A stretch of 64,000 bases of DNA, taken from sequence record KM190144. The stretch is one strand, 5' to 3'. Made by a program: the position numbers and the translations under genes. Below, piece after piece: positions 9,212 to 36,043 of this stretch. Origin of the DNA: Escherichia phage Av-05. Under the pieces are notes generated by a model that was not told the origin of the DNA, searched no databases, and was given only the letters and a program-made list of their open reading frames with translations. Position 1 is the stretch's first letter. The number at the start of each line of letters is the position of its first letter.

Positions 9212-9728
9212 AAGAATCCTCCATTTTGTCCAGGAATGTTTCCAGGAGTTTTATTCTTTCTGGTGTGTTAAGATTAAGTGTTTTAATCCCTTTCATCTTA
9301 GCAAGATTGACAGCAGTAGCCGTGCCGCCTCTTGGATTGCCATTCTTATCTTCTTTTGCAAAGTAGAGCACAAAGGAAGATGGCTTTGGGTTGTTAATAT
9401 TCACTCCCAACACTTGATGCACATTCCTAGAATGCAACGCAAATGCTGATCTGTTTCTCAACAATGCTTGTGGGTTTGGATGCACCTTTTGCACCAACTC
9501 ATCTCGATATTCTATTTGGTCGATATATAGATGGTTAATATATTGTAAGGCATAATCCCAGTTATCGTACAAACCCACTTCTTTATCACCAAAACCTTTC
9601 CATGGTATGTAGATTTCTGCGAGTCTGTTACCATACAACATTTTGGTTTTATCGTCAAGGCCATCGAAATATCGCTGCATCCCTCTCTGGAACGCTGCAT
9701 CGGCTCCTTCTGCCTTACCGCTCCGCAA
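9183..9728 (-). CDS. Hypothetical protein
   Basis: TTG start; weak DprA/SLOG-like resemblance (GKAEGADAA, RNRSA) not relied on. Confidence 0.35.
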   Translation of the reverse strand: MRSGKAEGADAAFQRGMQRYFDGLDDKTKMLYGNRLAEIYIPWKGFGDKEVGLYDNWDYALQYINHLYIDQIEYRDELVQKVHPNPQALLRNRSAFALHSRNVHQVLGVNINNPKPSSFVLYFAKEDKNGNPRGGTATAVNLAKMKGIKTLNLNTPERIKLLETFLDKMEDSFAKVPRQTQ

Positions 9729-9762
9729 TGTAAACCCTATTTTTTTTTCAAGGAGTTAAGCA

Positions 9763-11013
9763 ATGACAGCAACAACAGGTGTTGGTGGTTTAATTTATGG
9801 TCGTGCATTGGTTGATCAGAGGACAGGAAAGAAAATAAATTTTGATGAACTGGGCGGCGGGAATATTCCAGAAGACATAACAGATCTTATTGCATCTAAA
9901 GCCCCAATAGAAAGCCCTTCATTTACAGGAAACCCCCAAGCACCAACACCGTTGGATGATGCTATTGGAAAGGAAATAGCTAATGTAGAATATGTGAGGG
10001 GTTTAATTGCAAAATTGGCTGACTCAGCGCCTGAAACATTAGATACTCTCAATGAATTAGCGAAGGCATTAGGTGATGACCCTAACTTTGCGACAACCAT
10101 AACTAACGCTCTTGCTGGTAAACAACCATTGAGTGAAATACTGACATCTTTGTCAGGATTGATTACTGCCGGAAATAAACTAGCTTATTTCAGTGACAAA
10201 AACGTAATGGCTTTGGCAAATCTCTCCGCTGTTGGTCGAGTTATTATAGGGCAAGACTCAAAAACTGGGGTTCTTGATTATCTGGGGATAAAAACCGCCG
10301 CTACAAAAGATGTACAAAACGATATCTATGATGCCACCGATGGGGTAGTATCTTTGCCTGGTGCATTTGGTTTTGGGGCGTTTATCCCTGCCGAGAAAGA
10401 AGTTGTTTTTCAAGAGAAGAATGGGCCAGAGGAATGGGTTTCTTGGTTGAGAAGTGCACAACCTGGTCGTTACCTTGTTCGCCAAGATTTACCTTCAGGT
10501 GGTATACGTATTATTGAAGGGATCACATTTAGAGGTATGGTTGAGGTATTGTCCCTATTTCCAGCGGAGAGTGCGGAACAGGCATCTAAAAATAACAAAT
10601 ATGCTTATTTTTATGGTATAAATGGGGAGTTATACTCTTATCGCTTACTGACTATTTTTGCCAGTGGTGACTGGGTGAATATAAAAGGACAATTCTCTTC
10701 TTTACAGTCTACGGTAGACAATTCATGGGGGAGTCCTGATGTTGGAGGAATAATGTTAGGAGTGTATCTTGGCGCTTCGGACACTGATTCAAACAGAAAA
10801 CTTGTTCGTGGTCAGACTATCCCAGGATCCCGCATAGGGTGTATAACTCTTTACAGCAATGTTTCCGCAACAGGTGCATATCAAAGTACACCAGTTTCTG
10901 TTACACACAGTAATGAAACACAGAGAGGCACGTTTGTAGCCTTATCTGGCTCACCAAGCAACAGCGGTGGTACAGCCACAGGTTACATAGGTCTTTTTAT
11001 GAGGATTGCATAA
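9763..11013 (+). CDS. Tail fibre protein
   Basis: SPSFTGNPQAPTP tail-fibre anchor motif; AAGGAG RBS; N-terminus MTATTGVGGLIYGRALVD. Confidence 0.6.
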   Translation: MTATTGVGGLIYGRALVDQRTGKKINFDELGGGNIPEDITDLIASKAPIESPSFTGNPQAPTPLDDAIGKEIANVEYVRGLIAKLADSAPETLDTLNELAKALGDDPNFATTITNALAGKQPLSEILTSLSGLITAGNKLAYFSDKNVMALANLSAVGRVIIGQDSKTGVLDYLGIKTAATKDVQNDIYDATDGVVSLPGAFGFGAFIPAEKEVVFQEKNGPEEWVSWLRSAQPGRYLVRQDLPSGGIRIIEGITFRGMVEVLSLFPAESAEQASKNNKYAYFYGINGELYSYRLLTIFASGDWVNIKGQFSSLQSTVDNSWGSPDVGGIMLGVYLGASDTDSNRKLVRGQTIPGSRIGCITLYSNVSATGAYQSTPVSVTHSNETQRGTFVALSGSPSNSGGTATGYIGLFMRIA

Positions 11014-11582
11014 TGCTGGATATTAAAGATATTAAGTCCCCGCAGTATCTTCTTAATGGTGACGTTGATTGCCTCGTCCTTTTTGAGGGTTTCTCTGATT
11101 ATCTCCCATACACCGCTTCCAGTAACGACTGTAGCGAAACAGGAAAGGCAGTTTGGGATTCCTTACAATCTGGTAATTTTGGGGAGATTGCCCCGTATGT
11201 AGTAAACCCTCAATTTATCGAGGCATTAAAGCAACAGATGTTATCAGAAATAAAAGAGTGGAGAAAACTGGAAGAAAGCTCTACGGCTATTGTTTCTTAT
11301 AATGGTGCAAGGTATGATGTTGATAATGCAACCCTTGGTCGTATTTATCCAGTATTATTAGCACAAAAAGCATCCCCAGCCAGACAAGCTGTGGTTTGGA
11401 GAGATGTTGATAACAAACCTGTAGAGATGAGTAGCTCTGAATTTGAAAATCTTGTTGTAGCTATGTCTTCCGAGTTGGCAACTAAGAATGATTCAATATA
11501 CATCAAGCAACGAGAAATGAAAGATCAAGTGCTTTCAGCCTCTACGATTGAGGAATTACAAAGGATAAAAATTGGGTGGTAG
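11013..11582 (+). CDS. Putative tail fibre assembly/accessory protein
   Basis: Start overlaps fibre stop (ATGA); position between fibre genes. Confidence 0.3.
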   Translation: MLDIKDIKSPQYLLNGDVDCLVLFEGFSDYLPYTASSNDCSETGKAVWDSLQSGNFGEIAPYVVNPQFIEALKQQMLSEIKEWRKLEESSTAIVSYNGARYDVDNATLGRIYPVLLAQKASPARQAVVWRDVDNKPVEMSSSEFENLVVAMSSELATKNDSIYIKQREMKDQVLSASTIEELQRIKIGW

Positions 11583-13222
11583 CTATGGATTATAAGGATA
11601 AAGTTGTCAATGCTGAAGTCATACTTCCAGATGGGCATAGTATTGGAGGATCAGGACTCCCAAGCCAATCTTTTAAATTATACACAGAAGACACCGCGAC
11701 CATAAAACTTTCAGGTAATGGTGAAAAAGCAACACCACTTAAAGGTGTTGTTGTGGTGGCAGAAGATGAAAATAATGCTCTCCAAGCTGGAGATAATGGG
11801 TTAGCTGTTAAGGTGAGTCCTGCTGCAAATAACCTGCTGGAGTTGAAGCAAGGAGCATTATATGTAACAGCACCAGAGATAAATATTCCAATTTCTCCTA
11901 AAGAAGGAAACGCTTTAACAAATATAACCTCTGAAGGGGAAGAGGGGTTGTATGTTGCGCCTACCAAAGTGCAAGGATGGCTTTATGATTCTGCACCTGG
12001 TGTTGCAGCTTTGCCTGGCGCTTTCGGCTACGGAATGACAGATCCTGGAGCAATTTCACTTATTGCTAACAGTCTTGGCGATGTTGCACGTTCTGCCCAT
12101 AACCTACACCCAGGAAGGTATTATACTTTCACCACACGATCTGAGGAAATGACCGGAATAACAGAAATTATCTGGTTGGATAATGGCTGGGGCAACAAAA
12201 CCAGTCAGACAGCAACAAAGCTGGTTCTGTTTTTTGGAAAAGACGGTCGTATGAAGTATACAATCCGTGGCGACAATCTAAGCGATCCGGCAGTGTGGTA
12301 TGATTTGTTAACTACTAAGCAAACAGATATCTATGATCGTACAGAAGGTGTTGTCGCCATACCTGGCATGTTTGGATTCGGTAGTGATTTCGTCGGTATT
12401 GATACTGTCTATTTTAACAACAAAGCGGAGTTCCTTACTTGGGTGCATAATACTCGTTCTGGTCGTTATCTGGTGAGCCAGATATATGGTAGCGAGCCTA
12501 TCATTAACAGCAATGTTACGTTTAGCGGTATTCTTGAGGTTATCCCAACTGGTAGTGTTGGCGTTGGTTACGAGGAGAATTTACCTAACGTATGGAAAAA
12601 CCTTATTTTTTACGGCGCTAATTACGGCGATATCTGGTACACACGTTTTACCACACAACCGAATAACTTGTCTGGTTGGAGGTGCTTAGATAAGACAACG
12701 GATATAATCAATTTGCAGAACTCGCTTAATAGAAAAGCTCCATTGTACAACCCTAATTTCTCTGGTACACCAACAGTACCTACACCAAGCGATTCAGCAT
12801 CAGGAACCCAGATTGCCAACGTAGATTTTGTTAAAAAACAGGTATCTAATAACACTTACACACTGTCTGCTGGCACGGTTACTGTTTTAGATAGTGGATC
12901 ACAACCTACTATTGAGATAACTGGTCAATCACCATCACAGGTTTTAAATTTGGGAATACCAAAAGCACCTGATGGACAAACAATAAAATCTGTCAATGCT
13001 GTTGTTAAAGAAATAGACAGCGCACAACAGGTTACACTAACTTTTACAATGACAGATGATTCAAGTCAACAGGCGAGCTTTAATATCCCGTTTTCTCCTC
13101 AGCCGACTATGAAGCTGTCAGCAACATCTGGGAATTTCTCTTTCAATTATGGCGATACACCTTCAGCGGAAAAACGCAGCGGGAAGATCTGGGTCTTCTA
13201 TATATTTGAAAACAACAGTTGA
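11576..13222 (+). CDS. Tail fibre protein, N-terminal part (frame-shifted relative to 13149-13553)
   Basis: PNFSGTPTVPTPSDSASGTQIANVDFV fibre motif; stop at 13220 inside overlap with next frame. Confidence 0.55.
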   Translation: MVAMDYKDKVVNAEVILPDGHSIGGSGLPSQSFKLYTEDTATIKLSGNGEKATPLKGVVVVAEDENNALQAGDNGLAVKVSPAANNLLELKQGALYVTAPEINIPISPKEGNALTNITSEGEEGLYVAPTKVQGWLYDSAPGVAALPGAFGYGMTDPGAISLIANSLGDVARSAHNLHPGRYYTFTTRSEEMTGITEIIWLDNGWGNKTSQTATKLVLFFGKDGRMKYTIRGDNLSDPAVWYDLLTTKQTDIYDRTEGVVAIPGMFGFGSDFVGIDTVYFNNKAEFLTWVHNTRSGRYLVSQIYGSEPIINSNVTFSGILEVIPTGSVGVGYEENLPNVWKNLIFYGANYGDIWYTRFTTQPNNLSGWRCLDKTTDIINLQNSLNRKAPLYNPNFSGTPTVPTPSDSASGTQIANVDFVKKQVSNNTYTLSAGTVTVLDSGSQPTIEITGQSPSQVLNLGIPKAPDGQTIKSVNAVVKEIDSAQQVTLTFTMTDDSSQQASFNIPFSPQPTMKLSATSGNFSFNYGDTPSAEKRSGKIWVFYIFENNS

Positions 13223-13553
13223 TCTGAACAGAGCACCTGCTGGCAGTACAGATGTTATGGTGGATGTTCGTTTGACAGAGATACCTTGTACGGAAGACGG
13301 TACGTATCTTGATTATGATATCTATGCAGAATACCCAAGTGTTGTCGGGTCAGGGCAACCCACAGTGGCTGTATGGCTTATTCTGCCAACAGTTCCCACG
13401 CATACCATTGATCCCAAGACGAAGATAATAACTAAACTTCTTCGCGGAGACGGTGGCTTATCAGGACTTAATGGAGTCATTCCTATTGCAGGTGCAGACG
13501 AACAAGTCCACGAGTTTAAATATTTCTTGCAATATTCTTATCTAAACAACTAA
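13149..13553 (+). CDS. Tail fibre C-terminal part (+1 frame continuation, no RBS)
   Basis: No Shine-Dalgarno before ATG 13149; frame is +1 to upstream ORF; A5 run at 13170-13174 in overlap. Confidence 0.4.
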   Translation: MAIHLQRKNAAGRSGSSIYLKTTVDLNRAPAGSTDVMVDVRLTEIPCTEDGTYLDYDIYAEYPSVVGSGQPTVAVWLILPTVPTHTIDPKTKIITKLLRGDGGLSGLNGVIPIAGADEQVHEFKYFLQYSYLNN

Positions 13554-13563
13554 GGGGATAATT

Positions 13564-13821
13564 ATGGCAACAACAGGTGTGGCTGGTAAAGTATATGCAT
13601 CAAGCCTTGTTGATATTAAGACAGGTAAATCTGTTAAAGTTGGAGATATAGTTGCTGGAGGATCCGGTGGCTATGTTCTTCCAGAAGCGACAACATCTAC
13701 ATTAGGAGGTGTAAAGAAAGCAGAGTCCCAATCTGATTCTGTAGCCTCTGAGGTAGCTCAATTAGTAACAGATTTTAATGCTCTGCTTTCCAAGTTAAAA
13801 GCCGCTGGCATCATGGCGTAA
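13564..13821 (+). CDS. Small protein with tail-fibre-like N-terminal module
   Basis: MATTGVAGKVYASSLVDIKTGK parallels N-terminus of fibre 9763-11013; AAGGGGA RBS; followed by terminator. Confidence 0.5.
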   Translation: MATTGVAGKVYASSLVDIKTGKSVKVGDIVAGGSGGYVLPEATTSTLGGVKKAESQSDSVASEVAQLVTDFNALLSKLKAAGIMA

Positions 13822-13825
13822 TATA

Positions 13826-13850
13826 AAGACCCTTCGGGGTCTTTTATTTT
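13826..13850. terminator. Bidirectional Rho-independent terminator between convergent genes
   Basis: GACCC-TTCG-GGGTC hairpin (13828-13841) flanked by A-run and TTTTATTTT. Confidence 0.6.
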
Positions 13851-14248
13851 AGGAAGCTCTGTACTCTTTTGTCCAAATTTGCATTAATATACGGCTCACG
13901 CCCATTTTTGTAGAAAGTACAAATATATTTTCCTGTGTAGGATTGTTTTCCTGAGATAATTGCGACATCATCAAAATATTGATATGCTTCTGCTTGCTCT
14001 GCAATTCTGCCTTCAAAACCTGATGACACAACAATAACGTCCGGTTTAAATGCTTCTCTGAATCTTTTATCGCAAGATAATTGCACAATACGGCTGATCG
14101 CCTCATCTTTTTCTTCTGGCGATAACCAACTTGCCTCGACAGATTTGTAATCGTCAAGATCTGGGTTGTTTTTTATATAGCTGGTAATACCCGCACCAAC
14201 AAGAGCACAAGCACATACTGCAAGCGTAACTTTCAAAATACTTTTCAT
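13844..14248 (-). CDS. Secreted protein / candidate lipoprotein (signal peptide)
   Basis: AAGGAG RBS 6 nt before ATG 14248; MKSILKVTLAVCACALVGAG signal-like N-terminus with Cys near end of h-region; inverted inside tail module. Confidence 0.5.
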   Translation of the reverse strand: MKSILKVTLAVCACALVGAGITSYIKNNPDLDDYKSVEASWLSPEEKDEAISRIVQLSCDKRFREAFKPDVIVVSSGFEGRIAEQAEAYQYFDDVAIISGKQSYTGKYICTFYKNGREPYINANLDKRVQSFLK

Positions 14249-14273
14249 AATATTCTCCTTAGTTGCTAAGGAC

Positions 14274-14302
14274 ATTTTACACATAAGGGTTTTTCGTGTC
14301 AA
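14274..14302 (-). promoter_or_regulatory. Sigma70-like promoter for 13844-14248
   Basis: On minus strand: TTGACA (14297-14302), 17-nt spacer, TAAAAT (14274-14279), about 25 nt upstream of ATG. Confidence 0.5.
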
Positions 14303-27513: not shown

Positions 27514-29577
27514 ATGACAGAGGCTATTTTCACAGCCAGAAGAGAAGATGACTCTGTAGCTGTTAGCTTTGACTATGAAACAATATCAAACACAGCTATT
27601 GCTGGAAGAGATTATACACCCAAAGTAGGTACGGCAACAATTCCTAAAGGGGAAAAGTCTGTACAGATACCTGTGGAGATAAAACAACATCCTAAAAACT
27701 CATTACCAAGAGAATTTACCTTGAAAATGAGTAATCCGTCTTTTGGTGCAAGGCTAGACAGGCTGGCTTCCAGATGTGTTATTAGCACCAAGGAGGATAT
27801 GTCTGAGTTGGGGTGGGGAACAAAAGAAGAGAAAATGTTTCTACCTAAATATTGGACAATTGATTCTCAGCCCACAGAAAGTTGCTCTATAATATCTAAT
27901 GGTAATATACTTACAGCTTATATGACTAATAGAACTGTAAGCGGTTTAGCAGGGGTTATTTGGAGCACAAAAGATAAGTATGATCATAAAGGGATCTCTT
28001 TTCAAGATCACACAGATCTTCGAAACGCTAAACTGTGGTTCGATATAGAGTTGGGCGACGGAATGCCTGATTTTAATAATGAGAAATTGACCCCGACATT
28101 AACTCTTAAACTTTTAGATGGGGCGACCCATTATATCCCTCTGTACGCTTATGCTGAAAATATCGGTGAGGATTATAAAAGAGCCACAATCAAACTTGAT
28201 TTTTCAAATTTAAAATCCGGCCCTGATGTGAACGTGCCAGTGGATACCTCTCAAGTGGATCAGTTTTTCTTTTCTATGATATCTGAGAAGTATGCAGAAG
28301 GAGAAGATGTTGTCCCTAAAGAAAATCAGAACCTTATGTTGAAAATAACTCTTAAAGAGCCTGATACAGGCTATACAATGATGAGAGTTAATAATTTGAC
28401 AATTCCTGCACATGATGTGCGTATGTGTACATCCTATGATGATATGTATAACCTGACACCTGAACGAGTGGTGGACAACTGCTTGAAACTTGGGTACAGG
28501 GATATGATAAACCACTATAATGGTATGTCGCATTATTACGAGTTCTCTTGGGAAAGCTCCGCATGGAAACTGAACAAAGATGTCCCTGTCAATAATGCAA
28601 CCCTACAATGGATGAATAACTATTTCGCACTGACACGAGCAAATGGTTATAAGGTTATCAATTCTATTAGTTTTGAGTTGATGAGTACTGTATGTCCGGC
28701 AGAATGGGTGCAGCATGATTGGAATGATGCATTAGCTGAAACAGGATACACACCACCAAGTTGGGTATTATCTCCTAATATTAATGAGGGTATGCAATAT
28801 ATCCAAAGTGTGATAAATAAAATAGCAGCCACATGCGAACAAGCTAACCAGGTTGTTATCATTCAGATAGGGGAGCCTTGGTGGTGGTATAATACTGCTA
28901 CAAATTTACCTTGTGTGTATGATTATACTACAAAAGCGCGTTTTAATGAAGAGACTGGATTGTATGCTCAAGACATGGGGACAATTTATGACTTTAAGAC
29001 CGGAACACCCTATGATGAGTATGTAGATTTTCTAAGACAGTGCTTAGGGGAGCGAGTGGTAAAATTCGGTGCTGATCTTAAAAAATCTTATCCTAATGCA
29101 AAAATAACACTTTTACCGTTTTTACCATCCATTATTGGTAATGGTATTATGGAAAAGATAAATTTCCCTAGTGGTAGTTATACACCTGAGAATTTTGATC
29201 TCTATTGCTCCGAGTGCTATGACTGGTTACTCCAAGGGAAAATGGAAAAATCATTCCAAGCCATCACCATTCCGCGAGATGTCTTAAAATTTAAAGAAGA
29301 TAAGATACATTATCTGGCAGGATTTGTTCCAGACGAAGGGCTAGCACCATTATACGGATTTGACCCTAATTCTAATTATAGAGAATATCTTTGGAAAATG
29401 ATTATAGGGAACATTGTCCTTAATGAGTTTAAGTTTCCAGGTATTTATCAATACATATGGGCGTATCCACAAGTAATGCATGATTCTATAACAGTGCACA
29501 ACTCTCAATCCGCAGTCTTTCATATGGGGCATACAGCATTGAAAGGGTATTTAAAAGATACCCCACCAGAAGTTTAA
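27514..29577 (+). CDS. Calx-beta domain tail protein (putative receptor-binding or glycan-interacting)
   Basis: N-terminal AVSFDYETISNTAIAGRDYTPKVGTATIPKGEKSVQIPVEI fits Calx-beta pattern; 687 aa W/Y-rich. Confidence 0.4.
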   Translation: MTEAIFTARREDDSVAVSFDYETISNTAIAGRDYTPKVGTATIPKGEKSVQIPVEIKQHPKNSLPREFTLKMSNPSFGARLDRLASRCVISTKEDMSELGWGTKEEKMFLPKYWTIDSQPTESCSIISNGNILTAYMTNRTVSGLAGVIWSTKDKYDHKGISFQDHTDLRNAKLWFDIELGDGMPDFNNEKLTPTLTLKLLDGATHYIPLYAYAENIGEDYKRATIKLDFSNLKSGPDVNVPVDTSQVDQFFFSMISEKYAEGEDVVPKENQNLMLKITLKEPDTGYTMMRVNNLTIPAHDVRMCTSYDDMYNLTPERVVDNCLKLGYRDMINHYNGMSHYYEFSWESSAWKLNKDVPVNNATLQWMNNYFALTRANGYKVINSISFELMSTVCPAEWVQHDWNDALAETGYTPPSWVLSPNINEGMQYIQSVINKIAATCEQANQVVIIQIGEPWWWYNTATNLPCVYDYTTKARFNEETGLYAQDMGTIYDFKTGTPYDEYVDFLRQCLGERVVKFGADLKKSYPNAKITLLPFLPSIIGNGIMEKINFPSGSYTPENFDLYCSECYDWLLQGKMEKSFQAITIPRDVLKFKEDKIHYLAGFVPDEGLAPLYGFDPNSNYREYLWKMIIGNIVLNEFKFPGIYQYIWAYPQVMHDSITVHNSQSAVFHMGHTALKGYLKDTPPEV

Positions 29578-29592
29578 GAAGGAGATACTTTT

Positions 29593-30663
29593 ATGGCTAT
29601 ACCAAGTATACCAATCGAGATTTGGGCAGCGGGAGATGTAATTCTCCCTAATACTCACGGGGAGAACAAAATAAGACCTATTGACGACCTTTGGTTAAAA
29701 GGTTGGGATATGGGAGAAAAACCAGCTTGTGAAGAGTTTAACTATGTTCTTCATATGATGACAAGTTGGATAAAATATGTTACAGGGGATCAAATTCCTG
29801 AATTAGATACAAGATTTTTAAGAAGAAGTGAAAATCTGTCTGATTTAGCGGATAAGGAAACATCCAGAGTCAACCTTGATGTGTGGAGCAGATCAGAGGC
29901 CGACAACCGTTACGTGAATGTAACGGGAGATACAATGACAGGAGCTTTGTCATTGCCGAGATTGAATTTTCAACCTTCTGAGACAGATACTGCGTATATC
30001 ACAACTACAAATCCGGCTTCTGACTGGACGTACTGGGATTTTGTTCTTGGAGATAATCCAGGAACAGCAGGGACAAACGGTGTAGATTCTATACGTTTCC
30101 GATTCTCTCCTTCAGGTAACTCTGGGATGTTCACTATGATGGAGCTTAATGCTATTAGCTCCTCAGCGGCTTTGTGTAAAGTAACAGGAAATGTTGTTGC
30201 CACAGGCACTGTACAAGGAACAAATGTTAATGGCACAAATGCAACATTCACCACAACAAGAACATCCTCTTTGACGGCTACAGGGCAAATTCAAGGTCAA
30301 ACTGTTGTAGCAACAAGCTCATTAACAACACCATATGCAAGGGTTAATGGGGAAGCGAATGTAAATTCACTGGTTGTAAATAATAACTCTGCAAGGGTTG
30401 CGGGGAGAAATATCGTAAGATCTGTTAATGGTGTAGGTGCTGACGGGAATGGTAATGTTAACTTACCAACAGGAAGTGTTCAGCAAATAAGACTTGGTAA
30501 TCGTTTCTCTGCGGGGGTTGTTGAGTCTACGTTTTATCCTGGACATGTAATGACTGGCTGGGCATTTGGTAATAAAAAGGAATTGAGAGGTGGTACGTAT
30601 TACACTGCTCCTTTGCAATATCTTGTGAATGGTCAATGGGTAACAGTAACAAATTTAAACTAA
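29593..30663 (+). CDS. Tail fibre protein
   Basis: T/S/G/N/V-rich beta-repeat region (TGNVVATGTVQGTNVNGTNATFTTTRTSSLTATGQIQGQTVVATSSLTT). Confidence 0.5.
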   Translation: MAIPSIPIEIWAAGDVILPNTHGENKIRPIDDLWLKGWDMGEKPACEEFNYVLHMMTSWIKYVTGDQIPELDTRFLRRSENLSDLADKETSRVNLDVWSRSEADNRYVNVTGDTMTGALSLPRLNFQPSETDTAYITTTNPASDWTYWDFVLGDNPGTAGTNGVDSIRFRFSPSGNSGMFTMMELNAISSSAALCKVTGNVVATGTVQGTNVNGTNATFTTTRTSSLTATGQIQGQTVVATSSLTTPYARVNGEANVNSLVVNNNSARVAGRNIVRSVNGVGADGNGNVNLPTGSVQQIRLGNRFSAGVVESTFYPGHVMTGWAFGNKKELRGGTYYTAPLQYLVNGQWVTVTNLN

Positions 30664-30666
30664 GGG

Positions 30667-31218
30667 GTGCATATGTACAAAATCTATGGTAATTTTCAGC
30701 CTTACACACCTGAAAGAACAGAGTATAATTCGGCCTTCATAGACACAGGGGCAGGTTTCCTTAAAGACAGTGATGGTAGAGATTGGTATGAATTATCAAA
30801 AGAACTAGCTGATAACAAAGCGGAAAACCAAAAATTTTTGCTTCTGACTTCGGATGATATAGTCCTCTGTGTCTCACAAGACCCAACCGCTTATTTTCCT
30901 TATGGAATGAAAATAGTAGTTATTGAGAATCTTACTGTAAACTTAGACCCTAAACTCGGGCATATAAAATTTACAGATGGAGAATTTTTTGATTATAACA
31001 AAGAAGCGGTAGAACAAGCTCAATCAATTATAGAAACAGAAATGATGTGGGCTTCTAATCAAATCTCTACCTTGGAGGATATGATCTCTATGGGATTGGG
31101 TACAGAGAGTAGAAAAAAATATCTGGAAAAATTAAAAGAGTATCGCATAAAACTGTTTTCGTTAGACCCTGAAGAAGATATGAATATTTCTTTACCAGAC
31201 AGACCTTCTAAAAAATAA
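30667..31218 (+). CDS. Tail fibre assembly protein (Tfa-like chaperone)
   Basis: C-terminus LKEYRIKLFSLDPEEDMNISLPDRP resembles Tfa C-terminal signature; follows a fibre gene. Confidence 0.45.
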   Translation: MHMYKIYGNFQPYTPERTEYNSAFIDTGAGFLKDSDGRDWYELSKELADNKAENQKFLLLTSDDIVLCVSQDPTAYFPYGMKIVVIENLTVNLDPKLGHIKFTDGEFFDYNKEAVEQAQSIIETEMMWASNQISTLEDMISMGLGTESRKKYLEKLKEYRIKLFSLDPEEDMNISLPDRPSKK

Positions 31219-31229
31219 GGAGACAAGGA

Positions 31230-31544
31230 ATGTCTATTGACCTATTTGCTATCTTAAAAGCCGTATGGGGTGTATTGACGTTTTTCTTAGTTGGTGTTCT
31301 GAAGTTAACATACTCAGACTATAAAAAGACACAGCAACGTCTTGATGAACTTGATAGGGACATCATAAGAATTAAGGCAGAGATGGTCACTAAAGAGAAA
31401 CTTGATGAGATTCTTGATAAAAAACTGAAAGCTGTCCGCGATGATGTTTCAGATTTTAGAAAAGACTTAAAAGAGGATGTGAGCAGTTTGAGAGTTGATC
31501 TTATAGACCAGCTTAAAATTCTTATAGAGAGTCAAATGAAATGA
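31230..31544 (+). CDS. Membrane-anchored coiled-coil protein
   Basis: N-terminal TM (LFAILKAVWGVLTFFLVGVL) then heptad-rich charged segment. Confidence 0.4.
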   Translation: MSIDLFAILKAVWGVLTFFLVGVLKLTYSDYKKTQQRLDELDRDIIRIKAEMVTKEKLDEILDKKLKAVRDDVSDFRKDLKEDVSSLRVDLIDQLKILIESQMK

Positions 31545-32014
31545 TAAGTTCTGCACTGTACTTTATATGCTTTGCAGTGCTACTTCTTGATAATGACAAA
31601 GGGATCCGAGCCATGTCAGTATTTGGCATGGTTCATATCGTGGCAGAGAATATACTGTACTGGTGGTTCTGTTCCCATATCTACGCATTTGACTTGTCAC
31701 TCTACCTAACCTTTTGTTGGTTCTTGGATATATCTCTGATTTTCTTTACTGCATGTGCTTTGACAGGATGGAGAAAAAAGCTAATGCTTACACTATCTCT
31801 TCCTGTTCTGTTTTGCCAAATTTTAGTTATGCAGTTCCCATTTATTTTACCAATCGCATTAGGCTTCACGATAAATTCATCATATCCAACATTTATGGAA
31901 GTTCTTTTATTATGCGCAGCATACAAAAGCGGCACAATAAAAGAATTGCTTGAGACTTCTGTTGTTGTTGGTTTCATAATTATAGCCAGAATTGTTCCTG
32001 GAGTAAATTATTGA
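31541..32014 (+). CDS. Polytopic membrane protein
   Basis: 157 aa with about four hydrophobic helices; ATGA-coupled to previous gene. Confidence 0.4.
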   Translation: MISSALYFICFAVLLLDNDKGIRAMSVFGMVHIVAENILYWWFCSHIYAFDLSLYLTFCWFLDISLIFFTACALTGWRKKLMLTLSLPVLFCQILVMQFPFILPIALGFTINSSYPTFMEVLLLCAAYKSGTIKELLETSVVVGFIIIARIVPGVNY

Positions 32015-32029
32015 GGATTCTAATGTATT

Positions 32030-32293
32030 ATGCTAAAATCAATATTGAAATTTTTAAAAGACCTTGTCAGATCCCCAGTAAATCCAGAGAAGGCCTCTCA
32101 CACAAAATTTTGGAGTAATATCGGCTTGGCTGCAATGACAGCAGTTTTTTTAGATTGGGGTTTCAAAGGCACATTGACGGAGTGGTATATGTGGGTGTAT
32201 GCCCCCACAGTGGCTGCTCCACAGTTAATAAGTAAGTTAATATCTCTACGTTGGGGTGTAGAAGCACAACGTAGGGAAGAATCAGACCAATAA
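32030..32293 (+). CDS. Small single-TM membrane protein
   Basis: 87 aa, central hydrophobic helix NIGLAAMTAVFLDWGF. Confidence 0.4.
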   Translation: MLKSILKFLKDLVRSPVNPEKASHTKFWSNIGLAAMTAVFLDWGFKGTLTEWYMWVYAPTVAAPQLISKLISLRWGVEAQRREESDQ

Positions 32294-32303
32294 GGAGATT
32301 CTT

Positions 32304-34058
32304 GTGGCAGACATGACTAAATTTGAACAGGCGGTCGATCAGGTTGTAGAAGATTCTGAACGCCTTCATAAAGTTGTCAATGGGGCAGCTACTGAAACTG
32401 TAGTTACAGAGGATGGCAGTCTGATACCTACAGTCAGAAAAGCATTTCTTGACAATTTATTCTTTAAAACACCTCCACTACCGTGGGTTGCTGGACAACA
32501 GGCAACGGTATTTAATCAGTTGTATGCTTATACAGGGGAAAGAGGTGTCCAATGGTGGTATGCACCCGGTGCGACAGAGAGTTCACCTGTAACACTACCT
32601 TCTAATCCAGTCAACAATGTTAACTGGAGATTATACAACGATTCAGAATCTATGTCTCAGCTATTTGCGCCTATTGACAGCCCTATCTTTACAGGGAACC
32701 CTCAAGCACCAACACCATCAGCGGATAGTAACAGTACAACTCTGGCAACAACACAATTCGTTACCAGAGCTATTGCTACCGCTTTGGCTGGAATTGCGGG
32801 TGGAAATGGTACATTCGCAGATCTTACTGTAACAGGTTTAGCTAGTCTTAATACGCTTTCTGTTGGCGGTGTATCAACATTTAATGGGCCTGTTAATGCT
32901 GACAACCAAACAGGAAAATTCCAGAATCTTATCTTAACAAAAGATAATTCAAGCCTATCTTTTGCCTACAGTGATGATTCTAACCCGACGTTTATAAAAA
33001 CAAGGCTTGAAGCATACTCAGCACAGACCCATCAGTTACATACAGATATCATCATAAACGGTGTGCCAGTAGCAGACAATACAACAATGTCTTTCACAGG
33101 TCTTGGTAATAATACCTTCGACTATGTTTATATTACAGGCAACTCTAAAAAAGACCCATCTGAAGCTCGTCTCAAAGTTTCTGGGATGACAGAACTTGAA
33201 AACTTAAAGATCACAGGTACTGTAACAGGACTTTCTTTTTCTGTCAATGGGGAAGACATCTCGCCTAATTCTGTAACAACGGCACAAGGGGTTACTGTAG
33301 GTGGTGATTTACAAGTCAATGGTAACACCAATCTCAACAGTACAACATGTGAGAGCTTAGAAGTTACTAACAACCTTGTTGTTAATGGACAAACCAGCCT
33401 CAAGGATTTCTCCTCTACAACTGGTAATGTCACAGGGCTATTAACTTTAGGGGAGGGATTCACTGCGACTGGTGACGGGTCTGTAGGTGGTGATCTAACT
33501 GTCAACGGAACTTCAACCCTTGGTAAGATAATATCTGATGGTGATGTGACTTTAAATAGATCTTCTGGCACAACAACAGTAAACAATTTGGTTGTTAAGG
33601 GGACTGTATCTGGTATTACGTTTGATTTGACAGGACAAAACGTAAACGTAGCATCTCTTTCTGCTCAAAGCAGTGTAACGACAAATCAGTTATTTGTTAA
33701 CGGCCAGGCACAACTTTCTTCCACCAATGTAAGTTTCCTAACTTTACAATCGGAAGAGGTTGACGATCCAACAGCAACATGGACACCAAGCGGCACATCC
33801 AACATTTATAATATCACAGTGAATAAAAATCTGACAATCGGAGCATGGCCTGATCCACAGCAACCTTTCTCCGCTATGATTTATCTGACGCAGGATGCCA
33901 CAGGTGGACACAGTGTAACTCTGGATCCTAATTATGTTGTCCTTAACAGTGAAACTGTTAATACGGCAGCAAATTCAGTTACCATCCTTCAATTAACCTT
34001 TAATGGTGTTGAAGATGGGGTTGTTGACACCATTATTGTCCGTAGACCACAACCATAA
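32304..34058 (+). CDS. Tail fibre protein
   Basis: SPIFTGNPQAPTPSADSNSTTLATTQFV anchor motif; repeated NGxTxL/VxG beta-repeats. Confidence 0.6.
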   Translation: MADMTKFEQAVDQVVEDSERLHKVVNGAATETVVTEDGSLIPTVRKAFLDNLFFKTPPLPWVAGQQATVFNQLYAYTGERGVQWWYAPGATESSPVTLPSNPVNNVNWRLYNDSESMSQLFAPIDSPIFTGNPQAPTPSADSNSTTLATTQFVTRAIATALAGIAGGNGTFADLTVTGLASLNTLSVGGVSTFNGPVNADNQTGKFQNLILTKDNSSLSFAYSDDSNPTFIKTRLEAYSAQTHQLHTDIIINGVPVADNTTMSFTGLGNNTFDYVYITGNSKKDPSEARLKVSGMTELENLKITGTVTGLSFSVNGEDISPNSVTTAQGVTVGGDLQVNGNTNLNSTTCESLEVTNNLVVNGQTSLKDFSSTTGNVTGLLTLGEGFTATGDGSVGGDLTVNGTSTLGKIISDGDVTLNRSSGTTTVNNLVVKGTVSGITFDLTGQNVNVASLSAQSSVTTNQLFVNGQAQLSSTNVSFLTLQSEEVDDPTATWTPSGTSNIYNITVNKNLTIGAWPDPQQPFSAMIYLTQDATGGHSVTLDPNYVVLNSETVNTAANSVTILQLTFNGVEDGVVDTIIVRRPQP

Positions 34059-34064
34059 TATAAA

Positions 34065-34090
34065 AGGCCACAGCAGTGGCCTTTGTTTTA
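34065..34090 (+). terminator. Rho-independent terminator
   Basis: AGGCCAC-AGCA-GTGGCCT hairpin then TTGTTTTA. Confidence 0.6.
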
Positions 34091-34099
34091 GGAGGATTA

Positions 34100-36043
34100 A
34101 TGTATCCAATCCCTTGTTTTTATATCATAATTTCCAATAACCCTCTAGCCAACTCCATTTCCTTAACCTCCCTCGGTACGTGTCTTAAAGGAGGCAAAGC
34201 ACAATTAATATGGTCTGTTGTGCCAGAAGGTGCAGACTTGCATGATATAACATTTACACCAGACAAACCGACAATTGTATCTGTTGATCCTACGGGGCTA
34301 GTATCTTTTCTTGAAGATGGTGATTTTATCATCACAATGTCTGCAAAGACTGGCAAAGGAGATGAAGAAAAGACCTTAACAGCACAAATCAATGGGCATG
34401 TTGACACATTACGCATTGATGTTGATCCTATAGGCAGCAGAAGCATTAGTGATAGATTCTGGTTTGTCTACAAAGGCGACCCGTCTTTTGACCCAGGCAA
34501 TCCGAATCCGAATATGATTGGCTTTAACATCTCCCCAGCAGAAGTTATGGAGGAGGATGACTTTTATGTCACCGCAGTTTCTGAAACACCTGATATATTA
34601 AGTCTGGCTCCTAGTGGTATCATTACATGTGTTAGTAAAGGTGTTGGGCATTGTGGCATGAAAGGAACCTATAAAGATGTGACAGTAACGACGCTTACCG
34701 ATGTATATGTGGATATAGCACCAGCACTTATAAATCCGACTGCTGTAGCCAACAGTTATGGTGACGTTAAGATAGCGTGGGATGTTCAATTTCCCTCCTC
34801 GGATGATATTTATACCGTAGAGGTTTATGACCCTAAAATGCCAGATGCTGTGTGGAGTAAGAAAACCAAAGACACATTCGTATTCTTTGATGTTACAGAA
34901 TCAGTGCCTATCTTTGGATTCGCCCCTACATATCTTGATGTGGTCATCAAAGGATCAAATCCAGAAACACAACCTATAAGTCCTGATAGGAATATAACTG
35001 TTGACGACTCTTTTGTTAAAGAGGTGCTTGTTTTTGCTGGCGGTGATAACGCAGCAGCGCATTTTAACTCTTTTTCTGGTAGGGATAAAACAACCCAAAG
35101 TGCGACCACAGCACGTAATGAGTATGCTCTCAGCAAAGGGTTTTACCCAGCAGAAGTATTACCAATCAATGCCGCATTCATTACATCTTGTGCAGAAGCA
35201 CAGGCAAACTCCTCTACAGGGTTAGCCACAAATTACTGGTATGACGTTAGTTCCTCCACAGCAGGTCCGTGTCTAACACAGTTCCTTGCGAAGGTTAAAC
35301 CTTATAAGGATAAAATTAAGGCTGTTTTCTGGTCGTTAGGGGAACAAGATGCCATGGTAGCAGCAGCAAAACAAGAGGGAAAACATAGCGATGATGCTCG
35401 TTTTCAGACTGCTATGACCGCCATCTTTGAAAATATCCGATCTGTTATCACAAATCCTGAAGCCAAGATTGTATTGCAGACACTTGGCAGATGCTTTGAT
35501 GATGATGTGGAAGTAGGTGGTGTTGAGTGGTATCGTTATAGAAATATTCAACAACAGTTAGTGGTAGATTCCAAGGGTGGAGTTATAATTGGCTCTTGGG
35601 TTGATGGCGCTGAACACTACGGCAATTATGTTGTTTCAGGGGCAGGGGGTGGTTTAAGAATACACTACCGACCAACAATTTATAAGAATGCCGCAATATC
35701 CTTGGCTAACATGGAGGACTTGTCGAGCACACCTCCTGCTTGGGTGGATATGAAAGTTCCCATGGGAGGAAAGGCAGTAAGGCAAGCAAACCAAGATATT
35801 CTTTTATCATGGGATACCAGAGACTACAGCAAGTTCTCTCTTTTTAACTTTGATGTCCTGACAGGGGCTGTTATATCCCAACAAACATTGACCACCAATA
35901 GTTACACATTTACCTACGCAGATCAAGTAAAACAGTACGGGTATGCTGCGGGTACAGTTTTGTTTGGTGTTGCATATGTTCAAACAACCAGTAAAGGTGA
36001 TATTACATCTCCGTTGGCGAAATTCAATATTAATGTAGCGTGA
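34100..36043 (+). CDS. Tail fibre/spike protein with Ig-like and SGNH/SASA-like esterase domains (putative)
   Basis: GGAGG RBS 4 nt before ATG 34100 (track GTG 34076 is inside terminator hairpin); VLVFAGGDNA and FWSLGEQDA resemble SASA/SGNH esterase motifs. Confidence 0.4.
   Translation: MYPIPCFYIIISNNPLANSISLTSLGTCLKGGKAQLIWSVVPEGADLHDITFTPDKPTIVSVDPTGLVSFLEDGDFIITMSAKTGKGDEEKTLTAQINGHVDTLRIDVDPIGSRSISDRFWFVYKGDPSFDPGNPNPNMIGFNISPAEVMEEDDFYVTAVSETPDILSLAPSGIITCVSKGVGHCGMKGTYKDVTVTTLTDVYVDIAPALINPTAVANSYGDVKIAWDVQFPSSDDIYTVEVYDPKMPDAVWSKKTKDTFVFFDVTESVPIFGFAPTYLDVVIKGSNPETQPISPDRNITVDDSFVKEVLVFAGGDNAAAHFNSFSGRDKTTQSATTARNEYALSKGFYPAEVLPINAAFITSCAEAQANSSTGLATNYWYDVSSSTAGPCLTQFLAKVKPYKDKIKAVFWSLGEQDAMVAAAKQEGKHSDDARFQTAMTAIFENIRSVITNPEAKIVLQTLGRCFDDDVEVGGVEWYRYRNIQQQLVVDSKGGVIIGSWVDGAEHYGNYVVSGAGGGLRIHYRPTIYKNAAISLANMEDLSSTPPAWVDMKVPMGGKAVRQANQDILLSWDTRDYSKFSLFNFDVLTGAVISQQTLTTNSYTFTYADQVKQYGYAAGTVLFGVAYVQTTSKGDITSPLAKFNINVA

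Follow-up and report, generated by a model that had tools for sequence, protein, structure and literature searches.

A shared N-terminal module in a small PF11133 protein and an Stf-like fibre of Escherichia phage Av-05 suggests a capsid-borne fibre locus

Gene content of the locus

We analysed 64,000 nucleotides of DNA of Escherichia phage Av-05 (sequence record KM190144; this whole stretch is referred to as the window, and all coordinates are its own), with emphasis on a fibre locus at positions 9763–13844. The source region is that of a Vequintavirinae (rV5-like) E. coli myophage, whose nearest records are phages 24-2-1, 18-1-2, 19-1-2 and TH18 (~90–95% nucleotide identity, classed as Avunavirus). 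Two long fibre proteins, named here fibre A and fibre B, are encoded at the locus together with a partner protein of fibre A and a small protein of 85 amino acids (aa). The N-terminus of fibre A recurs in the small protein, and we propose that this shared N-terminal module (N-module) may anchor both of them on the capsid. Features of the locus are as follows.

9763–11013, plus strand: fibre A, 416 aa, N-module followed by an Stf-like body with a distal receptor-binding region (homology to P0132; phrog_2636)
9763–9876, plus strand: N-module of fibre A, long-fibre (L) subtype, residues 1–38, proposed hexamer-centre anchor (hidden Markov model (HMM) match, E 6e-9)
9913–9951, plus strand: junction motif SPSFTGNPQAPTP, residues 51–63 of fibre A (regular expression)
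11013–11582, plus strand: DUF4376 partner, 189 aa, part of the fibre A cassette (PF14301, E 8e-12)
11585–13553, plus strand: fibre B, a single gene whose intact form encodes 649 aa, present here as open reading frame (ORF) 11576–13222 and ORF 13149–13553
12749–12787, plus strand: motif variant NPNFSGTPTVPTP, about residues 391–403 of fibre B (loose regular expression)
13168–13169, plus strand: one-base insertion in fibre B, GG versus G in relatives (CCTTCAGCGGAAAAACGC in the window, CCTTCAGCGAAAAACGC in relatives L006 and L001)
13564–13821, plus strand: putative small head-fibre protein, 85 aa, short-subtype N-module (residues 1–36) and C-terminal PF11133 domain (Pfam and PDB matches)
13825–13844, plus strand: terminator-like hairpin closing the locus, 8-bp stem AAAGACCC/GGGTCTTT followed by a T-run

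In Vequintavirinae this is an accessory-fibre locus sited between the gene encoding the major capsid protein (MCP) and those of the neck. The gene order in eight relatives is MCP, a ~170-aa (Inh-like) gene, 0–3 long fibre genes, the small N-module gene, a convergent membrane-protein gene and then the adaptor and neck genes. The number of long fibres varies from none in KpS8, where the small gene stands alone, to one in the relative L013 and two in loci of the window type. Because the small gene of KpS8 occurs without any long fibre, the docking partner of its product would be a core part of the virion. In rV5 no N-module gene follows the MCP gene. In phage φTE an annotated terminator lies at the place equivalent to the hairpin, after the gene phiTE_217. 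A promoter scan gave sites no more numerous than in shuffled sequence. Products of the equivalent locus are present in the virions of relatives, namely CB7_10/11/12 (PMC7344957), W70_129/130/131 (PMC11370258) and the φTE protein pTE217 (PMC11972413). Spectral counts of W70 were set aside as a measure of stoichiometry, as the counts of known fibre and sheath proteins are not proportional to copy number.

The window is collinear with 24-2-1, 18-1-2, 19-1-2 and TH18 from position 9740 rightward, and left of this position it matches another scaffold of those phages. The switch of sequence (junction 9739/9740, region 9700–9765) is located within a poly-T tract just 5′ of the ribosome-binding site of ORF 9763. 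Minus-strand genes lie to its left, where all relatives with context have the MCP gene and the ~170-aa gene instead, and the head module is missing from the entire window. The junction could be either a genuine rearrangement or an assembly join.

The N-module is shared by two proteins

The N-termini MTATTGVGGLIYGRALVD of ORF 9763 and MATTGVAGKVYASSLVD of ORF 13564 are similar with a BLASTP E value of 6e-8, which bears out the recurrence reported by a first-pass annotation of this DNA. An HMM of the N-module, for which the input was restricted to small proteins from other genera, was run on the six-frame translation of the window and matches only two N-termini, those of the 85-aa ORF (E 3e-12) and ORF 9763 (E 6e-9), the next best match having an E value of 0.7. 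An all-against-all comparison of the fibre-like ORFs reveals only three shared elements: the N-module (9763 and 13564), a motif region (9763, 11576 and 32304) and a globular domain of ~110 residues (once in 9763, twice in 11576). The earlier suggestion that attachment modules are shared across the fibres is therefore correct for these two proteins and does not extend to the fibre set; the pairwise comparison of N-termini proposed along with it finds only the N-module of 9763 and 13564 in common.

Residues M1, A2, G5, G8, D17, T20 and G21 are invariant over 13 N-module sequences. The module is rare, being carried by 32 of 1.84 billion cluster representatives, and it starts at residue 1–5 of its carriers, save for two weak internal matches. 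The cargo that follows it is diverse. Some carriers have PF11133 tips or Stf-type shafts with globular ends, and others have collagen, either as repeats with a small β domain or with a globular end; the collagen repeats imply trimers. The modules fall into loose long, short and Certrevirus groups, which are tentative as only ~33 residues can be compared, with identities over these residues of 53–82% within the long type versus 37–53% between long and short. At the DNA level the 5′ ends of ORFs 9763 and 13564 are only ~52% identical while the protein pattern is kept, which rules out a recent duplication.

All loci with a long-type N-module also encode a short one (the window, L001, L006, L013, L014 and P8734). 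Tandem pairs of N-module genes after the MCP gene are also seen in other phages, namely P8734 (L016, 3492–4444), LNA4, VLCpiM5b and AV124. In the Klebsiella phage P8734 the first product of the pair is 210 aa long, with collagen repeats and a globular end, and the second is a PF11133 protein of 99 aa.

The 85-aa ORF resembles capsid fibre proteins

The 85-aa ORF matches PF11133 with 58.8 bits (cutoff 24.6; E 8e-16) over profile positions 213–277 of 277. A phmmer search against the PDB gives matches at E ≤ 4e-9 to four different solved sequences, each of them named as a fibre or decoration protein of a capsid: two constructs of phi29 gp8.5 (6QVK, E 4e-12, and 3QC7), crAss001 gp21 (7QOF, E 2e-10) and the 99-aa 'B2 Dec Gp45' (9D82, E 2e-10). 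Residues 45–85 are confidently modelled by AlphaFold 2 (AF2), with a predicted local distance difference test score (pLDDT) of 87–97, and Foldseek places 3QC7 and 6QVK at the top with a probability of 1.00, the E value of only 6.5e-3 being that of a short domain. The likeness to phi29 gp8.5 concerns the last ~55 residues (E 4e-12; the Foldseek alignment has 45% identity). At 280 aa, however, gp8.5 also comprises a base domain with a fold of its own and a shaft of supercoiled helix-turn-helix type, and the 85-aa ORF lacks both.

More than 100 small PF11133 homologues of 73–164 aa form the family of this protein, which is present in Seunavirus, Mydovirus and related genera of Vequintavirinae. 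Its gene has an upstream ribosome-binding site (AAGGGG) and the terminator-like hairpin directly 3′. Family conservation, these signals and the PF11133 match together indicate a genuine conserved gene and a constant member of the locus. The first-pass annotation had proposed a remnant or a decoy among its options; the gene is neither, being present in Seunavirus and Mydovirus, alone in KpS8, and belonging to the PF11133 family at large. By analogy with its relatives the protein would be a trimer.

Fibre A is a chimera of the N-module and a prophage-type fibre cassette

Downstream of the N-module, residues 39–416 of fibre A align with residues 219–604 of the Salmonella Mu-like prophage fibre P0132 (E 3e-125; 388 aligned residues with 52% identity), and the protein is also matched by the tail-fibre family phrog_2636. 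The N-terminus of P0132 carries PF08400 (residues 1–134) and PF03406 (residues 189–229); homology with fibre A begins downstream, at residue 219. ORF 9763 has no Pfam match at E ≤ 0.1, and this includes the PF08400 tail-attachment domain. DUF4376 genes sit downstream of both fibre A and P0132, and ORF 11013 is 38% identical to the gene directly 3′ of P0132 (E 1e-50). The Stf homology and the DUF4376 neighbour together point to a two-gene tail-fibre cassette in which the tail-attachment domain has been replaced by the N-module. In comparison with the Stf proteins of lambdoid and Mu-like prophages, the body and the partner are thus homologous (52% and 38%), whereas PF08400 and PF03406 are missing and a 38-residue N-module is found instead. 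The long fibre, and not the 85-aa ORF, is accordingly the derived chimera. ORF 11013 is probably an assembly factor or accessory protein. It was also considered as a counterpart of the 214–216-aa gene that follows fibre B in Seunavirus and φTE; no similarity was found (E 1.6).

The distal residues 210–416 of fibre A have AF2 pLDDT values of 78–94. A Foldseek search of the ORF 9763 model against the PDB gave noise only (RSV F, lectins; E > 0.01, low probability). In sequence searches of the PDB its sole strong match is the shaft region of 9D93, next to a weak match to the designed repeat protein 7ONA (E 1e-6); the wedge-binding N-termini of the φTE short tail fibre (STF) and long tail fibre (LTF) were not matched. 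Among relatives of fibre A, residues 1–50 are 94–100% identical and the remainder 43–59%, which is the usual pattern of a fixed anchor and an exchangeable receptor-binding end. The fibre A gene has a strong ribosome-binding site (AAGGAG).

A variant arrangement is seen in L013 (6001–7764; Logan SRR30025518), where a single 587-aa gene joins the proximal half of fibre A, with the N-module, to the distal half of fibre B; both the DUF4376 gene and the fibre B anchor are absent. This fusion gene shows that fibres A and B have recombined.

The SPxFTG motif lies at a module boundary

A motif had been noted in the fibre ORFs 9763, 11576 and 32304 and taken as a shared attachment module. We searched the six-frame translation of the window by regular expression with the strict pattern SPxF[ST]GxPx[AV]PTP and found two occurrences only, in ORF 9763 and in ORF 32304, the latter being as follows.

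32679–32717, plus strand: motif SPIFTGNPQAPTP, at residue 126 of ORF 32304 (regular expression)

The copy in ORF 11576, NPNFSGTPTVPTP, has N in place of S and lies outside the strict pattern, and yet the region is homologous: residues 28–83 of 9763 align with residues 363–424 of 11576 (BLASTP E 2e-8), and the motif regions of all three ORFs are mutually homologous. The motif is thus exact in two of the three proteins and degenerate in the third. The intact fibre B orthologue of L006 has SPSFSGTPTAPTP at this place, while the φTE LTF has the variant SPNFVGNPRVPTP at about residues 134–146, inside the modelled stretch 14–171. There it follows the two parts of the fibre that touch the baseplate, its N-terminal helical bundle and a globular domain (PMC11972413). 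In phage 24-2-1 the orthologue of ORF 11576 is devoid of the motif.

In fibre A the motif is located 12 residues inside the start of the Stf homology. The motif region is matched by many PHROG tail-fibre families and by thousands of proteins. In exchangeable fibre bodies this motif is the conserved element that comes first. The motif stands beyond the virion-specific N-terminus or in mid-protein (residues 51, 126 and ~391) and is absent from the 24-2-1 orthologue, so it is not an attachment module. The description that suits it best is that of a junction in the shaft where modules meet, or a recombination joint, rather than an anchor. More generally, SPxFTGxPxAPTP is an example of how a conserved motif in fibres marks a boundary of exchange and not a docking site.

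Evidence linking the N-module to the capsid

Phage 24-2-1 is the nearest relative of the window, and the closest solved capsid to its MCP is that of φTE (9CUL, E 5e-125). The φTE gene phiTE_217 occupies the same genomic position as the 85-aa ORF, and its product starts with MAAIGGTSLGLVTGYAIMDQETGQVKTISELFEGG, in register with both window proteins. The N-module of ORF 9763 aligns with residues 10–54 of pTE217 with a pairwise E value of 0.001, and the 85-aa ORF aligns with pTE217 with an E value of 0.08. It has been reported that pTE217 is the fifth most abundant protein of the φTE virion (exponentially modified protein abundance index, emPAI, of 79,432 versus 533 for the next unassigned protein), and it was putatively assigned to the 'Pagoda', an unmodelled density at hexamer centres whose contact region lacks symmetry (PMC11972413). 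It is not among the modelled neck proteins (portal, adaptor, head completion, terminator) or the nine modelled baseplate proteins (PMC11972413). The authors detected no homology for pTE217 (PMC11972413), and the link to the N-module is new relative to their study. Although φTE (Certrevirus, Vequintavirinae) shares genome position, N-module, subfamily and a related MCP with the window phage, the C-terminal ~125 residues of pTE217 are unrelated to PF11133 or Stf and have no Pfam family, and its location was assigned by abundance.

A second parallel is provided by crAss001, in which residues 1–38 of the 97-aa gp21 bind as a trimer in a pocket at the hexon centre and residues 42–97 are gp8.5-like (PMC10172136). 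The 85-aa ORF is similar in size and layout, and its residues 29–84 align with residues 36–92 of gp21 (7QOF, E 2e-10). Alignment of the N-module with residues 1–38 of gp21 gave no significant sequence similarity. A second head fibre of crAss001, gp29, also docks at hexon centres, so that a capsid with two types of fibre has a precedent (PMC10172136). However, the crAss001 capsid is T=9, an auxiliary protein forms its pocket and its two fibres have different N-termini, whereas one module is shared here.

We therefore propose, with a probability of roughly 60%, that the N-module is an anchor at capsid hexamer centres and that ORF 9763 encodes an Stf-derived fibre displayed on the head. A capsid site for the 85-aa ORF is suggested by its C-terminal PF11133 domain, which matches only solved proteins that are bound to capsids, and a capsid site for the module by the layout of gp21, the position and abundance of pTE217, the synteny, and the rarity and terminal position of the module. 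As the single N-module fibre of L013 has no fibre B anchor, the N-module appears to be independent of fibre B. In the proposed mechanism the N-module would plug into a pocket at the hexamer centre, a T4 Hoc-like position, and display the fused cargo on the head. Fibre A would have arisen when the module replaced the ~220-residue tail-attachment domain of a prophage Stf, with the join just before SPxFTGxPxAPTP and with the Stf shaft, receptor-binding end and DUF4376 partner kept. A receptor-binding fibre would then be present on the capsid, possibly at many sites, alongside or in competition with the small fibre, and might give the phage additional reversible adsorption beyond that of its baseplate fibres.

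Several points weigh against this proposal. No structure resolves the N-module on any virion, and AF2 models it with low confidence (pLDDT 45–68). The pairwise similarity of N-module and pTE217 is modest (E 0.001 and 0.08). The locus has no MCP gene upstream of it in the window (junction 9739/9740), so the synteny argument depends on the relatives. The W70 spectral counts add little, as they do not scale cleanly with copy number. We know of no capsid-borne fibre with an Stf-type receptor-binding end, and a neck, tail or fibre-on-fibre site for the long protein is possible. The assignment of pTE217 is based on its abundance in mass spectrometry and was called putative by the authors (PMC11972413).

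More tentatively, and at somewhat less than even odds, hexamer centres may serve as a plug-in display platform in several Vequintavirinae genera (Avunavirus-like, Seunavirus, Mydovirus and Certrevirus), the head thereby joining in host capture. A single rare anchor of ~35 residues would carry interchangeable trimeric cargos, be they PF11133 tips, collagen stalks with globular ends or, in the window phage, an entire receptor-binding cassette of a prophage tail fibre. The T=13 shell has two hexamer environments, to which the long and short subtypes might correspond, a match hinted at by the unequal occupancy of the φTE Pagoda.

Baseplate fibres and alternative locations

Two further fibre genes of the window are homologous to the baseplate fibres of φTE.

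29593–30663, plus strand: STF homologue, baseplate-anchored (residues 1–98 match residues 1–98 of φTE STF; 9CUY_c, E 1e-21)
32304–34058, plus strand: LTF homologue, baseplate-anchored (residues 8–348 match residues 16–369 of φTE LTF; 9CUY_g, E 6e-86)

In φTE, residues 3–92 of STF bind wedge 1, and the N-terminal helical bundle of LTF binds wedge 2A and the sheath initiator (PMC11972413). The 85-aa ORF and fibre B gave no match to these wedge-binding regions in a PDB sequence search. Since the anchors of 29593 and 32304 differ from the N-module, the baseplate fibres appear to use other anchors. ORF 27514 contains TIM-barrel and Calx-beta domains, and ORF 34076 has Big_2 and esterase-like (SASA) matches, both below the Pfam gathering score; ORFs 27514, 29593 and 34076 share nothing with the other fibre-like ORFs in the all-against-all comparison. 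The earlier count of six fibre-like or receptor-binding candidates is thus broadly right, and the idea of a multi-receptor apparatus with several distinct fibres agrees with the multivalent 'Swiss army knife' of several co-expressed lateral fibres described for Vequintavirinae and phi92 (PMC8594841). A many-fibre apparatus is therefore already known for this subfamily, and region 27514–36043, which encodes several fibre and glycan-active tail proteins including the STF and LTF homologues, resembles it. That apparatus is, however, located at the baseplate, and rV5 itself lacks an N-module gene after the MCP gene, which indicates that the locus at 9763–13821 is a separate, lineage-variable addition.

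It might be argued, in line with the earlier reading, that the small protein is part of this branched adsorption apparatus together with fibres A and B, N-module and motif docking on baseplate proteins or on other fibres. Co-expression of several lateral fibres in Vequintavirinae and phi92 (PMC8594841) and the derivation of the fibre A body and its DUF4376 partner from genuine tail fibres would fit. So would a 'third putative fiber candidate' near the LTF in φTE, whose gene is not named in the main text of that study (PMC11972413) and which we take to be phiTE_215, a fibre B-type gene, without confirmation. Nevertheless, none of the window's baseplate-fibre genes has the N-module, and pTE217 lies outside the nine modelled baseplate proteins of φTE and is far more abundant (emPAI 79,432 vs 533). 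The motif, moreover, occurs either past the anchors or in the middle of a protein, and 24-2-1 dispenses with it, while KpS8 and L013 keep N-module proteins without fibre B. We consider a baseplate site unlikely.

Phage T4 offers another model, since its fibritin gene wac adjoins the neck genes 13 and 14. The locus studied here is likewise directly upstream of adaptor and neck genes, and the N-module could attach to the neck or collar as the fibritin N-terminus does, with the small protein and fibre A forming whiskers at the head-tail joint. But the reconstructed φTE connector was described as narrow and with portal, adaptor, head-completion and terminator rings only, the 6–12 positions at a neck are a poor fit to pTE217 as fifth most abundant protein, and all solved proteins with the PF11133 C-terminal domain sit on capsid faces. 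The chance of a neck site appears small, being about one half of that of a baseplate site.

Slightly less probable again is that fibre A docks by way of the 85-aa protein, either in mixed trimers through the N-module or atop the small fibre, which would make the latter an adaptor. Every locus with a long N-module does have a short one. Against it, the long and short subtypes separate across genera (over ~33 residues), which suggests separate homotrimers, and the PF11133 domain is a distal tip in phi29 and crAss001 and not a docking platform (PMC10172136). That the N-module similarity is a functionless leftover of duplication or recombination, with fibre A an inert or unexpressed chimera, would suit a highly mosaic locus in which fibre B is frameshifted, but is very improbable given the protein pattern kept at ~52% nucleotide identity, the 94–100% conservation of residues 1–50 of fibre A while the remainder falls to 43%, the strong ribosome-binding site AAGGAG and the locus products in virions of relatives (PMC7344957, PMC11370258).

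If the capsid anchor proposed here is correct, proteins labelled 'tail fiber' in these genomes are head fibres, which bears on host-range prediction from catalogues of receptor-binding proteins and on the engineering of therapeutic rV5-like phages. The Pagoda density of φTE would gain the family context that its authors reported lacking, and the N-module would be a portable display tag of ~35 residues for trimeric cargo at the hexamer centres of T=13 capsids (120 hexamers by geometry).

Fibre B and neighbouring genes

The coordinates of the first-pass annotation hold save for two points, both in fibre B. Fibre B probably starts at ATG 11585 and not at GTG 11576. An extra G at 13168/13169, where the window has GCGGAAAAAC and two relatives have GCGAAAAAC, divides this one gene into ORF 11576 (548 aa) and ORF 13149–13553 (134 aa), which is in another frame; intact orthologues are found in L006 (649 aa) and 24-2-1 (593 aa). 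Either the frameshift is an error of sequencing or the gene was recently inactivated. A programmed frameshift is ruled out, as the ORF of the relatives is uninterrupted and the difference is exactly one G. The N-terminal ~128 aa of fibre B are 47% identical to a 918-aa collagen-like fibre of Seunavirus (E 3e-31) and similar to φTE_215; judged by this conservation, they appear to be a second conserved anchor, distinct from the N-module. The intact sequence has no match in the PDB, and Pfam searches with fibre B, pTE217 and phiTE_216 gave no families. The globular domain of fibre A occurs twice in fibre B. The region 12366–12758, which encodes the second copy, does not align to the metagenome scaffold L006, otherwise 94–96% identical; this domain has been swapped between near-identical phages.

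Near the baseplate genes, three small ORFs (104, 157 and 87 aa) with apparent hydrophobic segments lie at 31230–32293, between the tail-fibre assembly gene and the LTF gene. The same arrangement is seen in φTE and PVP-SE1, where the counterparts are annotated as membrane proteins.

In rV5 the ~170-aa post-MCP gene of other genera appears as two ORFs (L011, 14528–15356). Of these, gp059 is like the N-terminus and gp058 like the C-terminus of the ~170-aa gene, with extra intervening sequence in gp058. On the other side of the locus, a convergent gene at 13844–14302 (minus strand) follows directly, has an apparent N-terminal hydrophobic segment and is kept in relatives. It is named 'adenosine deaminase' in 24-2-1, which looks like a mis-annotation, and membrane protein in other records.

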